From positions 1 through 14,824 of the forward strand of contig CAVVOB010000006.1 in NCBI GenBank assembly GCA_963749655.1: a stretch of DNA of 14,824 nt, written 5' to 3'. A program made the translations under genes and the position numbers. Shown here piece after piece: positions 5,378 to 14,020 of this stretch. Every line of letters begins with the position of its first letter. Within the stretch, counting starts at the first letter, position 1. The notes under the pieces are model-generated. The model made no database searches. It was not told the origin of the DNA and saw nothing but the letters and a program-made list of their open reading frames with translations. Source of the stretch: Nitrospirota bacterium. GTDB taxonomy: Bacteria; Nitrospirota; UBA9217.

Positions 5378-5986
5378 ATGACCGGCGCTGATGATCAGAA
5401 TAGCACCCGGGAGGCGAAGATCCGGGAGATCCTGGAACAAGAGATCCAGGACGGCGAGGACCTGGCGAACGACGCCCGGAAGATGATCGGGTACCTGCTC
5501 CGGGACAAGAAGGGTTACGGTCAGGAAGACATCCGGAAAGGCCTCGCCTTCGAAGTGACGCTCGGACAGGAGGTTTTCTGGTCCTCGGCGGATTTCCTTG
5601 TATCCGTGAACGGCAGGATGGGTATGATCATCAAGTGCGCGGCAGGGTCGCTTGATTCCCGTGAGCGCCAGGCCGTGGCGGCGGCGCGGGTCATCGCATC
5701 CCCACCGCTGCCCGTCGCTGTCGTGGCCGATCCCGTGACGGCCGAGGTGCTCGATGTCGCATCGGGAAAGGTTATCGGTGAGGGCTTCGGCGCCATACCG
5801 ACGAGAGAACAACTGGTGGATATGCTGGAAGGGAATGCAGCGCAATCCCTGAACGACAAGCGCCTGGAGAAGGAAAAGCGCATCCTGCTCGCCTTCGACG
5901 CCATCAAGTGCTGCGTGCCCCAGGGTGGAAGCGGCGGCGTGCAGATCGGCCCGGATCCGGATCCGGATCAGGATGCAAAATCCTAA
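5378..5986 (+). CDS. Stand-alone type I restriction HsdR N-terminal-like (PD-(D/E)xK fold) protein
   Basis: YLLRDKKGYGQEDI, ADFLVSVNGRMGMIIKC, RERQAVAAAR, IPTREQL pattern resembles HSDR_N-type domains; no helicase domain. Confidence 0.65.
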   Translation: MTGADDQNSTREAKIREILEQEIQDGEDLANDARKMIGYLLRDKKGYGQEDIRKGLAFEVTLGQEVFWSSADFLVSVNGRMGMIIKCAAGSLDSRERQAVAAARVIASPPLPVAVVADPVTAEVLDVASGKVIGEGFGAIPTREQLVDMLEGNAAQSLNDKRLEKEKRILLAFDAIKCCVPQGGSGGVQIGPDPDPDQDAKS

Positions 5987-6040
5987 GGACCGATCGATCT
6001 TGATCCTCTTAGAATCCTGTCTGTTTAGCCACCCTTCCCC

Positions 6041-6882
6041 ATGACCCAACTTACCGAAGAGACCTTCGAAAAGACCCTTCAGACCTTCATCCGCTCGGAC
6101 CAGATCGACCTCCGCGACGTTTCCTTCATCGACCCTTACGGCATGGTGGGGCTCCTTGAGATCGGCGAGCTTTGCATGCTCGAGGACATCAAGAAGACCA
6201 TCCTTCTTCCCCGTTCAGAGGAGGTCCGGCGCTATCTCGAACGGATGGACTTCTTCACGAGCGCAAGGCGTATTTTTCCCTCGAACCGATGCATGTACCT
6301 TCCCCGGCGTCGGCGGGCAGGTCGGCGGACTCCGACGTACTGCTCGAGATCACGCCGATCGAACGTGCGAACGATATCCACTACATCGTCGGCAAAGTGG
6401 AGGAACGGGCGCAGGTCATACTGGCAAAGCACTTACGCTACGACAGTCGGGCGATCAACGGCTTCATTGTGGCATTGTCGGAGATCTGCCAGAACATCGT
6501 CGAGCACAGCGAGAACAAGGGATTCGTCGGCATCCAGAGGTACCGGTACCCGAGCCTGGGAAAGAACATCGTGAAGATCGCGGTCATGGATGCCGGGATC
6601 GGTTTCAGAAAATCTCTTTCATCACGGTTCAGGCTTAAAAGCGACCTGGATGCCCTTGAAAAGGCATTGCTTCATGGCGCGTCGCGCCACGAGGACGAGG
6701 GCAGGGGACACGGCTTGGCTGCGGTCCGGCGTTTCGCCGAGCAATGGCAGGGCAGGCTCTCCATCCGCTCGGGTACGGCACGGCTTTCGATCATCCCCAA
6801 ATGGGCGCGAGGAAAAGAACGTGAGCTGAACCTCACGAACTTCCCCGGTAGCCAGATCAATATAATCCTTCCTGAAGTGTGA
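6041..6882 (+). CDS. STAS-like + HATPase_c (RsbW/SpoIIAB-like kinase fold) protein; -1 frameshift near 6255-6285
   Basis: Frame from 6041: IDLRDVSFIDPYGMVGL..VRRYLERMDFF (STAS-like); -1 frame: YFSLEP..LLEITPI..ALSEICQNIVEHS (N box), DAGIGF (G1), GRGHGLAAV (G2), FPGSQINI; joined about 280 aa. Confidence 0.8.
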
Positions 6883-6884
6883 TA

Positions 6885-6897
6885 TTTCAACTACTTA
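6885..6897 (+). promoter_or_regulatory. Possible IHF-binding site
   Basis: TTTCAACTACTTA vs consensus WATCAANNNNTTR (1 mismatch) in an AT-rich tract upstream of the -35. Confidence 0.3.
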
Positions 6898-6928
6898 CGA
6901 ATATATAAGATTGCACGAAATAATCCAC

Positions 6929-6971
6929 TTGACAAGTCTGCCAAAATATGGTTCAATAGAATCAATTGAAC
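6929..6971 (+). promoter_or_regulatory. Sigma70 promoter with overlapping inverted-repeat operator candidate
   Basis: TTGACA(6929-6934)-17 bp-TTCAAT(6952-6957) with extended TG; GTTCAAT-N7-ATTGAAC (6951-6971) overlaps the -10 and start region. Confidence 0.6.
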
Positions 6972-6991
6972 GTAGAGATGCAAGGCTATTT

Positions 6992-7024
6992 CTGTTTAAG
7001 GTCATAGATACTGATCTTAAACAG
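6992..7024. repeat. 13-7-13 inverted repeat in the ORF6N leader; copy of the intragenic palindrome
   Basis: CTGTTTAAGGTCA-tagatac-TGATCTTAAACAG (12/13 Watson-Crick, one G.T). Confidence 0.85.
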
Positions 7025-7061
7025 TGTGACACGTTGGCAATTAAGCAGGGTGGAGTCGTCC

Positions 7062-7610
7062 ATGGAAACAATGGTCACAACAGAATCTATAGAACGGAAA
7101 ATCTACATCATCCGTGGTACGAAGGTGATGCTCGATAACGACCTTGCCGAACTGTATGGTGTGACGACGAAGGTGCTTCTTCAGGCAGTCAAAAGGAATA
7201 AAAAGCGTTTTCCCTCCGATTTCATGTTTCAGCTAAAATATCAAGACGTTGCAGTTTTAAGGTCACAAACTGTGACCTTAAAGACCGGGCGGGGAGAGCA
7301 TCGGAAATACGTTGCTTATGTATTCACTGAGCAGGGTGTTTCCATGTTATCCGGCATTTTGAACAGTGACCGTGCGATCGAAGTGAATATTCAGATCATG
7401 CGTGCCTTCGTTAAGCTTCGTGAAATGATATCGACGAATAAAGACCTATCTAAAAAGCTGGAGGAACTTGAGAAAAAGTACGATTCCCAGTTCAAGATAG
7501 TCTTCGACGCCATCCGGGCCCTTGTGTCACAACCGGAACCGAAGGAAAAGAAGATCGGGTTCATCAAGGAGAACCGCGCGTCCTACACCACAGCGGTCGA
7601 TATCCGCTGA
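7062..7610 (+). CDS. ORF6N-domain (KilA-N-like) DNA-binding protein with C-terminal coiled coil
   Basis: KIYIIRGTKVMLDNDLAELYGVTTKVLLQAVKRNKKRFPSDFMFQL, YVFTEQGVSMLSGILNSDRAIEVNIQIMRAFVKLR, KKYDSQFKIVFDAIR, KKIGF; GGAG RBS; visibly more AT-rich than neighbours. Confidence 0.92.
   Translation: METMVTTESIERKIYIIRGTKVMLDNDLAELYGVTTKVLLQAVKRNKKRFPSDFMFQLKYQDVAVLRSQTVTLKTGRGEHRKYVAYVFTEQGVSMLSGILNSDRAIEVNIQIMRAFVKLREMISTNKDLSKKLEELEKKYDSQFKIVFDAIRALVSQPEPKEKKIGFIKENRASYTTAVDIR
7256..7282. repeat. Perfect 12-bp-arm palindrome inside the ORF6N CDS
   Basis: TTTAAGGTCACA-aac-TGTGACCTTAAA, overlapping the codons for LRSQTVTLK. Confidence 0.9.
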
Positions 7611-7640
7611 GCGGAACAAAAGGGAATAATCAAGAAACTC

Positions 7641-8192
7641 ATGCTGACCTGCGACCTCTATACCATCCTCAAAGAAGAGTTGAAGAACGGCTCGAACAAT
7701 CTTGTGACCCGTCCCACGGGCCAGGCGGTGCGGGAGCGCATCGAGCGTGACCTGGAGCAGGCGCCCGAAGGGGCGGTGATCGGTCTGGATTTCTCGAAGG
7801 TCGGGGTGATCGATTACTCCTGCTCCGATGAGATCGTTGCCAAACTCCTTTCGCGCCTCCTCGCGGGGGAGTACGGTGAAAAATATCTGATGCTCACAGG
7901 CATGAATGAGAACCAGCGCGAGAACATCGAAGTTGCCCTCGAGCGGAAGGACCTGGCCATCATCGCCGAGACCAGGGAGGGGGCAAAGGCGGTGCTCGGG
8001 AACCTTAACAAATACCTCAAGGACACCCTGGCGTTCGTCGTCGAACGGAAGAAGGCCACGGCGCGGGAACTTTCCGAAGCGGTTAAGATCGAGGCGAACA
8101 CGAGCGGTACCCGGCTCTTGAACCTGTACAAGAAGCGGCTGGTCAGAAGGGTAGGCGGCGAGGGTGCGATGTGGGCCTACGAGGCGCTGTAA
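7641..8192 (+). CDS. STAS-like (DUF4325-like) domain + C-terminal winged helix-turn-helix protein
   Basis: LVTRPTGQAVRERIE, IGLDFSKVGVIDYSCSDEIVAKL (STAS-like); TARELSEAVKIEANTSGTRLLNLYKKRLVRR (wHTH). Confidence 0.75.
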   Translation: MLTCDLYTILKEELKNGSNNLVTRPTGQAVRERIERDLEQAPEGAVIGLDFSKVGVIDYSCSDEIVAKLLSRLLAGEYGEKYLMLTGMNENQRENIEVALERKDLAIIAETREGAKAVLGNLNKYLKDTLAFVVERKKATARELSEAVKIEANTSGTRLLNLYKKRLVRRVGGEGAMWAYEAL

Positions 8193-8197
8193 GCAAA

Positions 8198-8671
8198 ATG
8201 AACATGAAAAAACTCAGAGACAATATGGTCCTCTTCATCGCCCAGGGCGCCTACAGCGGCCGGCTCCCAAAGGCGCCCGGTACGGCAGGGACCGTTGTCG
8301 GGATACTTCTCTATCTGATGGTAAAAGACCTCAGCCCCCTCTGGTACGGTGCCGTATGCGTCGGCGTGACCGTTCTGGGGACCTGGGCGGCAGGATACGC
8401 AGACTGTATACTCGGAACGAAGGACAGCCCGTCCATCGTCATCGACGAGATCGCCGGTTTTCTCGTGGCACTGTTCCTGGTCCCCTTCGCCTGGGGATAC
8501 GTTCTTGCGGGATTCGCCCTGTTCCGGTTCTTCGACATCCTGAAGCCTTGGCCGCTCAAGAGACTGCAGGACATGCCCGGCGGACCTGGTGTGATGCTGG
8601 ACGATATCGGGGCGGCGGTCTATACGAATGTCATTTTGCAGGTTGCAGGATTGATCGTACACCCATGGTAA
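8198..8671 (+). CDS. pgpA: Phosphatidylglycerophosphatase A
   Basis: SGRLPKAPGTAGT, KDSPSIVIDEIAG, FALFRFFDILKPWP, GVMLDDIGA. Confidence 0.95.
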   Translation: MNMKKLRDNMVLFIAQGAYSGRLPKAPGTAGTVVGILLYLMVKDLSPLWYGAVCVGVTVLGTWAAGYADCILGTKDSPSIVIDEIAGFLVALFLVPFAWGYVLAGFALFRFFDILKPWPLKRLQDMPGGPGVMLDDIGAAVYTNVILQVAGLIVHPW

Positions 8672-8700
8672 CCCGAAGAACGAGAAGAAACGTCACTCCC

Positions 8701-8806
8701 TTATGAAACCACGGGTCCCGACCATGTCGGGACACACCGATAAACACGGGAAATCTGAAAAAATCGCTTGTAACCGTGTGCGGCGAAGCCGCCTGTGGTT
8801 ACATAA
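8701..8806. repeat. Multi-branched palindromic intergenic element (REP/MITE-like)
   Basis: Outer stem TTATG-A-AACCACGG...CTGTGGTT-A-CATAA enclosing GTCCCGAC-cat-GTCGGGAC, ACACGG...CCGTGT and GCGGC-gaa-GCCGC. Confidence 0.7.
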
Positions 8807-12024: not shown

Positions 12025-12084
12025 CTGCGTTCAGGGCATCTTCTTTCCTCGACGGGGTGATCACTGTCTCACCCTATCTTCTGC

Positions 12085-12113
12085 TCGAACTCCGCGGAAA
12101 ATTCGTGTATAAT
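12085..12113 (+). promoter_or_regulatory. Possible promoter for pilT
   Basis: Perfect TATAAT(12108-12113); weak -35 TCGAAC 17 bp upstream; GAGGAG RBS before ATG 12179. Confidence 0.4.
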
Positions 12114-12178
12114 AAGCTCATTGAAATCCGCCGAACGGGACCGATCCCAGACGGAAAAAGAAGAACGAGGAGACTCCC

Positions 12179-13397
12179 ATGGCTTTGAACGATTTGCTCA
12201 AAATGACATTCGAACGGAAGGCGTCGGACCTGCACCTCAAGGTCGGGGTGCCGCCTATCCTTCGGGTCGACGGCCGGCTGATTCCCCTGGAGACCGAGAA
12301 GCGCCTGACCCAGGATGATACCATCGGCATGGCGGCCAGCATCATGAACACGCCGCAGAAGAACCGGTTCAATGAGAAGAATGAACTGGACATGGCCTAT
12401 GCCGTGCCCGGCCTCGGTCGTTTCCGGGTGAACGTATTCAAGCAGCGCGGCAGCGTCGGCCTGGTCTTTCGTATGGTCCCCGCCAAGATCCTGAACTTTG
12501 AGGACCTTCTCCTCCCGCAGGTCCTTACGAAGATCGCCCAGGAGCAGCGCGGCCTCATTCTCGTGACGGGTACGACCGGCAGCGGCAAGTCCACGACCCT
12601 GGCGGCCATGATCGACTACATCAACACCTCGCGGACGTCGAACATCGTCACCATTGAGGACCCCATCGAGTTCCTGCACCGCGACAAGAAGAGCATCGTG
12701 AACCAGCGCGAGATCGGCTCCGACACCTTCAGCTTCGGCGATGCCCTCCGGAGCGCCCTCCGGCAGGACCCCGACGTGATTCTGGTGGGTGAAATGCGCG
12801 ACTTCGAGACCATCTCCATCGCCCTGACCGCAGCGGAAACCGGCCACCTGGTGCTGTCCACGCTCCACACGGTGGACACCACGGAAACTATCAACCGGAT
12901 CATCAGCGTGTTCCCGCCGTACCAGCAGAAGCAGGTGCGCATGCAGCTGGCCGCCGTGCTCAAGGGGATCGTGTCCCAGCGGCTCATTGCCCGGGCCGAC
13001 GGCAAAGGCCGCGTGGCAGCGGTAGAGGTCATGCTCGGGACCCTCTCGGTCCGCGAAGCCGTGATCGACGAGACAAAGACGCGCCAGATCCCGACGATCA
13101 TCGCCCAGGGCATGGTCCACTACGGCATGCAGACCTTTGACCAGTCCCTCCTCGGCCTGTACAAGAAGGGGCTTATCACCTACGAAGAAGCGCTCCTGTC
13201 CGCCAGCAACCCCGACGACTTCGCGCTCAAGGTCAAGGGCGTCTCGTCTACGAGCGACATGGCCTACGATGAAGAAGAGAAGAAGAAGTCCGGCACCTGC
13301 TATCCGGGGGACCATCGGCGGGACCCCGGGCGGTACCAAGTCGCCGGGCTCCGCGACGAGCAGCGAGTTCAAGATCGACCGGTTCGGGGACAAGTAA
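12179..13397 (+). CDS. pilT: Type IV pilus retraction ATPase PilT/PilU family; apparent +1 frameshift near 13285-13295, likely true stop at 13397
   Basis: ASDLHL, GRFRVN, GTTGSGKST (Walker A), TIEDPIE, LRQDPDVILVGEMRD, GHLVLSTLHT, GMQTFDQSL; the +1 frame gives a plausible tail PAPAIRGTIGGTPGG..EFKIDRFGDK*. Confidence 0.9.
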
Positions 13398-13400
13398 ATC

Positions 13401-13501
13401 GAGTGCGGAGTGCGGGTATACATGACCCTCACCCCTGCCCCTCTCCCCTGGAGGGAGAGGGAAAATGGGAGAGGGGGCTTTTTCAACGCGGAGTGCGGAA
13501 T
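13401..13501. repeat. BoxC-like pyrimidine/purine palindrome nested in GAGTGCG heptamer repeats
   Basis: CCCTCACCCCTGCC-CCCTCTCCC-ctgga-GGGAGAGGG plus a second GGGAGAGGGGG arm; GAGTGCG at 13401, 13408, 13491. Confidence 0.75.
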
Positions 13502-14020
13502 AGAAACCACACTACTGACAGGAATGAACAAGGCGTTGCCGATCAGCCGGAAGCAGCGCAAGATAAGCTCCTGAAACGGGCGAAGAACTCCGCCTACCGG
13601 TACCTCACTATCCGTCCCCGCAGCCGCAAGGAGCTGGCAGACAAGCTGCGGGACAAAGAATTCTCCGACTACATCATTGACGCCGTGCTGGATCACGTGA
13701 TCAAGCTCGGATACCTTGACGACGCAAAGTTCGCGGCCCAGTGGGCCGCGAGCAGGGTCAGGGGCCGGGGATTCGGCAGACGGCGTTTGGAACAAGAGCT
13801 CCGGATCAAGGGCATCAGCAGAGAGATCATCAAGGAAACGCTCAACACGCTCTTCGAGGAAGCTCCCGAGGCAGAGACGGCCCGCAAAGAAGCTGAAAAA
13901 AAGCTCAGGACCCTGACCCGGTTCGAACCGGAGGTCCGCCGCAGACGCCTGGCGGGATTCCTGGAACGCAAAGGGTTCTCCTCCGAAATTATCCGCAGTA
14001 TTCTCCATGCCGTTCGTTGA
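13493..14020 (+). CDS. recX: Regulatory protein RecX (start uncertain; in-frame GTG 13493)
   Basis: AYRYLTIRPRSRKELADKL, LGYLDDAKFA, GFGRRRLEQELRIKGI, RRRLAGFLERKGFS. Confidence 0.93.
   Translation: MRNRNHTTDRNEQGVADQPEAAQDKLLKRAKNSAYRYLTIRPRSRKELADKLRDKEFSDYIIDAVLDHVIKLGYLDDAKFAAQWAASRVRGRGFGRRRLEQELRIKGISREIIKETLNTLFEEAPEAETARKEAEKKLRTLTRFEPEVRRRRLAGFLERKGFSSEIIRSILHAVR

Follow-up and report, generated by a model that had tools for sequence, protein, structure and literature searches.

Some DNA-binding proteins have their binding site in the very gene that encodes them, as in lambda ori, the iterons of which reside within gene O, and in parS within spo0J/parB. The palindrome described here in ORF6N-domain genes resembles them in being a symmetric site in a tolerant part of the coding sequence that is inherited together with the gene, the binding by ORF6N being putative. 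Unlike these sites, however, it is found at one fixed place across a domain family and many phyla, and its arms co-vary, rewrite the encoded peptide and occur in two codon phases, with no role in replication or partition indicated. No site in its own binder's gene is known to be fixed family-wide, to rewrite the peptide or to survive a change of phase. A further likeness exists to intragenic operators and roadblocks such as lac O2 in lacZ, gal OI in galE and the PurR site in purB, which share with the ORF6N palindrome an operator-like position past the start codon, sometimes with an upstream partner (cf. 6992-7024 and 7256-7282 below). These sites, in turn, are confined to single species, reside in target genes and not in the regulator's own gene, and do not dictate amino acids throughout a family. 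Few uncharacterised 'regulator' domains are as common in phages, plasmids and defence islands as ORF6N and its relatives KilA-N, Bro-N and Rha, and ORF6N has no known DNA target; a family-wide site embedded in the ORF6N gene is a concrete candidate for such a target.

With respect to palindromes more generally, REP elements with their RAYT genes are likewise short palindromes clustered at one particular gene (PMC3733652). They are, however, located outside genes, are present in many copies and bear a GTAG or CGTC tag (PMC3733652). In ORF6N, by contrast, the key copy is part of the coding sequence, and the protein does not belong to the HUH enzymes. The coding palindromes of Nematomorpha mitochondria are, like the ORF6N palindrome, inverted repeats in coding sequence with both arms translated; they are up to 284 bp long and scattered over many genes of few genomes and, in contrast to ORF6N, are reported with neither matching non-coding copies nor a family-wide fixed position (PMC6649704).

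In titles and abstracts of the literature on ORF6N, and on Rha, antirepressor, inverted repeat and KilA-N, nothing was found on an intragenic palindrome, and the sole match to the palindrome strings themselves was an unrelated table entry of a CRISPR finder. Thus, no printed description of the ORF6N palindrome was found, and an earlier account outside the literature searched is possible.

The ORF6N gene and its low-GC segment

The window is the whole stretch of 14,824 nucleotides from a Nitrospirota bacterium analysed here. The features of its segment with the ORF6N gene are given below together with the two neighbouring genes. WIN denotes the window's own locus, and L001 and so on denote the other loci.

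6172-6882: HATPase_c gene (Pfam), GC about 0.58, 5′ of the low-GC segment
6883-7640, plus strand: low-GC segment (0.41-0.48) with leader and ORF6N gene (composition profile)
6929-6971, plus strand: candidate promoter region with TTGACA (6929-6934) and a second small palindrome (hexamer by eye, inverted-repeat scan)
6992-7024, no strand assigned: leader copy of the palindrome with 13-nt arms and a 7-nt spacer, ending 38 nt before the start codon
7049-7055, plus strand: Shine-Dalgarno-like GGTGGAG, 6 nt 5′ of the ATG at 7062 (by eye)
7062-7610, plus strand: ORF6N-domain gene P0001, 182 aa (Pfam PF10543, E 4.3e-32; translation)
7253-7285, no strand assigned: intragenic family palindrome with core 7256-7282 and centre 7269, encoding V65-K74
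7641-8192: weakly DUF4325/STAS-like gene (Pfam), GC about 0.58, 3′ of the low-GC segment

P0001 is a member of the ORF6N family, as it matches the PF10543 profile over residues 13-98 with 110.7 bits at a cut-off of 27.8; the same Pfam label is carried by thousands of its homologues. A protein 94% identical to it is P0002. In the AlphaFold2 model, long helices (residues 103-139 and 142-155) follow C-terminally to the domain, and residues 67-81, with a pLDDT below 50, make up the loop that links helix 60-66 to strand 86-89. According to this model the loop could be a place able to tolerate the constraint imposed by the palindrome, and comparison of homologues shows that the loop holding the palindrome segment accepts insertions of 13-15 residues. 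Searching the PDB with the P0001 sequence returned nothing below E 0.2, and a classification by Foldseek was dropped, the best PDB match having an E of 0.16 and the matches being mostly winged-helix regulators and the Dachshund/SKI domain. The ORF6N gene has a GC content of 0.46, compared to 0.60 in its flanks. A consensus promoter scan of 6800-7700 called no promoter on the plus strand.

The two palindromes in the window

The first-pass annotation had pointed out two related palindromes, and direct reading of the sequence bears out their coordinates, distance and similarity: TTTAAGGTCA-tagatac-TGATCTTAAA is located at 6995-7021 in the leader and TTTAAGGTCA-caaactg-TGACCTTAAA at 7256-7282 within the gene, 261 nt apart and with 19 of 20 arm bases in common. 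The 13-nt arms attributed to the leader copy are present as well (6992-7004 and 7012-7024, 92% complementary, with one G.T mismatch), and so is the stop, the coding phase giving L-R-S-stop. The 10-7-10 geometry said to be common to both does find both sites, but the intragenic copy is really of the form 12+3+12, its arms 7256-7267 and 7271-7282 being 100% complementary. Its codons read V-L-R-S-Q-T-V-T-L-K, with the centre at 7269 as the first base of codon 70. When the 14,824-base window was searched for the 10-7-10 pattern with up to three mismatches, exactly two sites were obtained, compared to a mean of 0.00 in 200 dinucleotide shuffles.

A covariance model, R1, was built from 97 sites (see below) and run over 484 kb. 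With this model the intragenic copy scores 43.6 bits (E 2.7e-08), whereas the leader copy is a weak family member (E 0.039 on the minus and 0.23 on the plus strand) because its centre, TAGATAC, is without the family core CAAWTTG; its outer arms resemble the intragenic copy.

A palindrome at a fixed place in ORF6N genes

A profile-guided scan of species-representative genomes yielded 80 loci with relatives 54-75% identical to P0001. Residue 66 was mapped by tblastn and the DNA taken, giving 89 gene copies from the window and the 80 loci; eight plasmid genes with 34-50% identity extend this set to 97 copies, and six further plasmid genes to 103. The palindrome is found round the same codon in the 89 gene copies, including L055 and L067 with 6 of 13 pairs, and in 101 of the 103 copies 9 or more of the 13 pairs are formed at this position of the domain. 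Among the 97 copies, 33 have all 13 pairs, 37 have 12, 17 have 11, six have 10, two have 9 and two have 6; the six further plasmid genes have 9-12. The two poor copies are those of L055 and L067, each with a perfect in-frame copy 42 nt downstream. The palindrome is kept across 34-100% protein identity and two reading phases, and comprises 79 distinct 25-mers among the 97 copies. Its carriers belong to the Nitrospirota, Planctomycetota, Acidobacteriota, Bacteroidota, Legionella, Campylobacterota, Spirochaetota, Bacillota and an archaeal bin, and its AT-rich codons persist in genomes of up to 75% GC. The ORF6N family element is a palindrome of 25-27 bp (up to 33 bp) with the consensus TTTGAGGTCACAA-W-TTGTGACCTCAAA.

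The statement in the first-pass annotation that the LRSQxVT-type segment is encoded by palindromic DNA therefore holds in general. Its description of this segment as variable holds for the wider family, where it varies and always by paired changes in the arms, but not for 48 close homologues, among which L66, R67, S68, Q69, V71 and T72 show no variation. On two Segatella copri plasmids (L087 and L092, 4.1 and 3.0 kb), the only annotated genes are ORF6N and, in one of them, a replication protein.

Constraint on the DNA

Comparison with synonymous shuffles, which the first-pass annotation had proposed as a test of palindromicity, reveals a clear excess of pairing: whereas 11.9 of 13 pairs are observed on average, the shuffles give 5.4, and in 85 of 89 genes (the exceptions being L055, L067, L071 and L075) at most 1% of them equal the observed pairing. 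For the gene in the window the values are 12 of 13 versus 5.1, with none of 2000 shuffles as high. Since the palindrome is centred on codon position 1, every wobble base has as its partner a base from the second codon position of the opposite arm.

In addition, the arms co-vary beyond what the codons demand, as had been suggested for examination. In the 97-row alignment, standard pairs occupy 84.1% of the cells versus 68.1% after shuffling, and 269 cells have changes on both sides versus 102.6 (in either case 0 of 500 shuffles as high); such both-sided changes are seen in 14 of 16 pairs, and sliding the partner column by 1-3 positions lets the pairing fall to 28-42%. These paired changes alter the peptide, giving, e.g., LRSQIVTS, LRSQFATL, LRCQAGIL, LRFQFGTS, LVSQNVIP, LKSQIVTS, WRCQIGTS and MRSQFVTA. 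In seven copies (the third gene of L043, L087, L088 and L092-L095) the centre even lies on codon position 2; these keep 11-13 of 13 pairs and read VVANCDH, VIKKFDN, LVENFDR and similar instead of LRSQxVT.

Taken together, the palindrome in ORF6N genes is maintained by selection on the DNA itself, and the excess over shuffles, the co-variation of the arms and the change of phase identify LRSQxVT as the shadow of a DNA symmetry and not as a protein motif. ORF6N hence provides a clean natural case of a nucleic-acid constraint overriding protein sequence, even through a change of reading phase, and for annotation and protein design the conservation of this loop should not be taken as a functional protein motif.

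Leader copies and other additional copies

At E <= 0.01, model R1 finds about 33 sites beyond the gene sites in the 484 kb, nearly all of them with an ORF6N gene at a distance of about 800 nt or less. Farther than 800 nt from every ORF6N gene, the density of palindromes, irrespective of sequence, is only 0.11 per kb. Dispersal of the REP/RAYT type was considered and rejected for the DNA searched, as the 14.8-kb window has just two copies and the 484 kb have no more than three or four family sites for which the closest ORF6N gene is over about 700 nt away.

Of the 89 loci searched with the model, 17 have leader copies, with 19 sites upstream of the primary gene; three additional sites precede paralogues in L043 and L047. 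Candidates ahead of the genes of L016 and L079, found by regular expression only and not at E <= 1 with the model, were excluded from this count. Arm bases match those of the gene's own intragenic copy in only three of the 19 cases (WIN 19/20, L051 20/20, L085 19/20) and differ in 16, and the leader copy of the window is an equally good match (19/20) to the copies of nine of the 88 other loci. Over all loci, the matching between leader and intragenic copy is weak (summed identities 274 versus about 245, 55 of 5000 permutations as high) and is driven by three loci. In a three-way alignment with the window's two closest relatives, the place of 6992-7024 is taken by a decayed 10-7-10 repeat in L001 and by a 68-nt gap in L002. 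A matching leader copy is therefore no family feature; because it seldom matches its own gene and is absent or decayed in relatives, the leader copy is best regarded as an optional, fast-evolving accessory and not as a coupled partner.

By contrast, the second small palindrome (arms 6951-6960 and 6962-6971, GTTCAATAGA and TCAATTGAAC), which lies between TTGACA and the leader copy, is kept in L001 (about 2880-2906) and L002 (1317-1345) and may be the real promoter or operator element of this leader. The promoter-proximal part of the leader is kept in all three loci, each of which has a TTGAC −35-like motif, perfect TTGACA being found in the window only. A common promoter geometry round the leader copies was sought and dropped, no pattern being apparent among the 22, the hosts of which are diverse; only five of them have any sigma-70-like candidate nearby.

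In five loci a second copy lies in frame 39-45 nt after the first, with differing arm bases:

L002, 1561-1632: second in-frame palindrome
L010, 3186-3263: second in-frame palindrome
L063, 3186-3263: second in-frame palindrome
L055 and L067, 3165-3239: second in-frame palindrome; in both loci the first copy is decayed and the second perfect

Further copies are situated directly after the stop codon or downstream (L082, L052, L043, L022) or are isolated (L025, L061). In L077, three different family palindromes spaced by 36 nt (2449-2553) precede a small gene upstream of the ORF6N gene; by eye, this array lies directly upstream of a promoter-like TTGACA...TATTAT, and the small gene resembles a BrnA-type antitoxin. 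In L043 (2850-5630), three ORF6N genes follow one another in tandem, the second with a frameshift; every gene has its own upstream palindrome, and the arm bases differ among all of these. The additional copies thus form a looser class of leader, post-stop and second in-frame copies that are gained, decay and are lost between close relatives. That they might be relics of older ORF6N genes was rejected for the upstream copies, as a short ORF6N-like fragment was found only in L023 and L042; the other significant profile matches (L047, L060, L066, L072) are full downstream paralogue genes.

In 30 non-coding copies in the vicinity of ORF6N genes, the consensus base is kept in 27-30 of 30 at positions −6, −5, −3, −2, −1, +2, +3 and +6, and the element is therefore sequence-specific beyond mere self-complementarity. 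Two sites of the family type lie apart from ORF6N genes. One is a perfect 29-nt copy (L090, 2499-2529) on a Sulfurospirillum plasmid, between genes for DNA polymerase IV and Sir2, with no ORF6N match on the plasmid; the other, with 10 of 13 pairs, lies in an intergenic stretch of phage P7 (L089, 2501-2524) and many P1-like plasmids, where the adjoining P7 ORFs have no Pfam match and no ORF6N gene is nearby.

Close relatives of the locus

The ORF6N gene resides at one locus in WIN, L001 and L002, within a conserved block of genes:

Window, 5378-8706: conserved gene block
L002, 1-3136: conserved gene block
L001, 3583-4671: conserved gene block

L002 shares the neighbours of the window (HATPase gene 88% identical in DNA, DUF4325-like protein 90% identical), and L001 shares the downstream genes (DUF4325-like protein 95%). 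The gene order common to the window and L002 is an HSDR_N_2-like gene, the STAS/HATPase_c pair, ORF6N, the DUF4325-like gene and an unknown ORF. Compared to the window, the ORF6N protein is 65% identical in L002 and 75% in L001, in contrast to 85-95% for the flanking proteins of the three loci and 85-97% for those of the block shared with L002. The ORF6N gene evolves or is exchanged faster than its neighbours. Some ORF6N paralogues are mosaics. Genes for tyrosine recombinases or integrases are found beside ORF6N in L081, L093-L095 and L074, these loci being plasmids of Parabacteroides and Legionella and a single genome bin. Such neighbours are a hint that ORF6N may take part in controlling integrative elements.

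Possible functions of the palindrome

Our tentative reading, to which we assign a probability of about 45%, is that an ORF6N dimer binds the palindrome as duplex DNA, so that the gene would carry the site of its own product, supplemented by optional auxiliary operators, with both the binding and the dimer being putative. In line with this, a symmetric site with conserved bases co-occurs with the ORF6N gene, as seen in the 30 non-coding copies and the clustering of the extra sites. The ORF6N domain, followed by long helices, is annotated as a predicted nucleic-acid-binding domain, and the ORF6N protein is the most economical candidate binder because it is the sole constant partner, the upstream neighbours being unrelated across 74 loci. 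The palindrome would then be recognised in double-stranded form by a symmetric dimer, in all likelihood that of the ORF6N protein of the same gene. With the site inside the gene, regulation would travel with the gene into any neighbourhood, and the bound protein might limit the expression of its own gene as a roadblock or second operator, whichever promoter reads in, leader copies such as 6992-7024 acting as auxiliary operators near the ribosome-binding site. Template switching in quasi-palindromes is a known mutational process that corrects the arms; it could copy a change from one arm to the other and so reinforce the strict symmetry.

The estimate is no higher because leader and gene variants usually differ and binding by ORF6N is only predicted: with leader arms differing in 16 of 19 cases, either one protein must accept several variants or the symmetry has another cause. 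The family-type sites on the Sulfurospirillum plasmid and in phage P7 likewise count against the palindrome being the protein's own site, as does the lack of a consistent promoter geometry round the leader copies. The first-pass annotation had proposed that the protein binds a site within its own gene plus a matching leader operator, so that site and protein sequence are coupled; this survives in the weak form of a shared core as putative site, but not as allele-specific coupling. A stricter version, according to which the loop encoded by the palindrome would itself read the palindrome as its binding site, each variant recognising its own encoding DNA, we regard as very unlikely. If it were true, paired arm changes would alter site and reader together, co-resident paralogues would stay orthogonal, and leader copies of another variant would be inputs from other paralogues. 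The palindromes of co-resident paralogues are indeed less similar than random pairs (13.5 versus 16.1 of 24 positions, 259 of 10,000 as low), a comparison that is confounded by the overall divergence of paralogues, and the 16 leader copies not matching their own gene argue against a simple self-coupling.

Other explanations dispense with a bound dimer. The palindrome might be an mRNA hairpin that acts on stability, processing or ribosome pausing, with leader and trailer copies as hairpins in untranslated regions: the copies near the gene are all probably transcribed and lie close to start codons or right after stop codons, and when 6965-7300 is folded, each copy of the window forms a stable local hairpin, in the minimum-energy as well as in the centroid structure. 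The cross-pairing between the two copies that the first-pass annotation had envisaged is, however, absent from this fold, and there is no bias of mismatches towards an RNA strand, A.C being at least about as frequent as G.U when the sense strand is read (A.C 28 and G.T 16 in genes, 12 and 14 in non-coding copies), which disfavours a selected mRNA hairpin, since G.U should be tolerated there and A.C should not. Moreover, bases of the non-coding copies are conserved beyond pairing alone, the innermost pair, where the loop would be, is standard in 57 of 95 rows, and the three-copy array of L077 lies upstream of its promoter-like sequence. For 6700-7800, Rfam 15 gives no match at E <= 1, and folding of the whole leader yields nothing remarkable (z −1.9). 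An RNA function thus seems improbable, and the mismatch symmetry and the conserved core point to a DNA-level site, with the proviso that a cruciform or a single-stranded DNA hairpin would give the same mismatch symmetry as a duplex site.

Such an extruded structure is the basis of another proposal, namely a hairpin or cruciform recombination site by which ORF6N cassettes are moved, duplicated or swapped via a recombinase or replication. It would fit the lone ORF6N genes beside unrelated genes at 74 loci, the GC content of the window's cassette of 12-14 points under its flanks, the higher identity of flanking than of ORF6N proteins in the relatives, the second in-frame palindromes, the short coding relics beside the upstream copies of L023 and L042, the integrase genes adjoining ORF6N at five loci, and the poor correlation between N- and C-terminal identities of ORF6N proteins (r 0.30). 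In a change-point analysis, admittedly a crude test since the pairs depend on one another and some parts of the gene are more conserved than others, chi-square exceeds 25 in 162 of 3916 pairs, yet the breakpoints pile up at −120 to −91 (67) and +120 to +149 (79) as counted from the palindrome centre, with only one pair in the −60 bin and three in the +60 bin, and the clearest mosaic, formed by the two paralogues of L060, switches about 55-70 nt past the centre. Furthermore, most loci have no recombinase nearby and the upstream neighbours share none, the gene stays at one locus in WIN, L001 and L002, and coding relics were seen in only two of the examined loci. The suggestion of the first-pass annotation that the repeats are insertion sites is therefore not borne out, and we consider recombination an unlikely basis of the symmetry. 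An integron attC site, by definition an imperfect palindrome of at least 57 nt that closes a cassette on its 3′ side and has an integron integrase for a neighbour, is not what is found here either, the element being 25-33 nt long and inside the coding sequence, with no integron integrase in the window. Nor do the two copies of the window resemble an intrinsic terminator, in which a run of T comes after a GC-rich stem: a terminator scan of 6800-7700 lists neither of them, and neither has a T run behind it. Finally, the palindrome might have no function at all, being an ancient insertion in a tolerant loop, with arms kept alike by template switching and nearby copies as duplicates. The low-confidence, insertion-tolerant loop, the known correction of quasi-palindromes and the fast decay of leader copies between close relatives would agree with this, but the retention in 101 of 103 genes over the whole range of identities and both phases, the perfect copy adjoining where the ancestral one decayed (L055, L067), the retention of the core bases in non-coding copies and the persistence of AT-rich codons in GC-rich genomes make it distinctly unlikely.

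Other features of the window

The remaining genes of the window code, according to Pfam, for a response regulator with a PilZ domain, an NmrA-like protein, a small cytochrome c, CinA, a LigT-type phosphoesterase and RecA. At 12074-14020, two long ORFs of 644 aa (minus strand, with no Pfam match) and 613 aa (plus strand) overlap on opposite strands. At 5955-5990, at the 3′ end of the HSDR_N_2-like ORF, GGATCC units form a run, which surfaced in the palindrome scan as overlapping even-centred palindromes.
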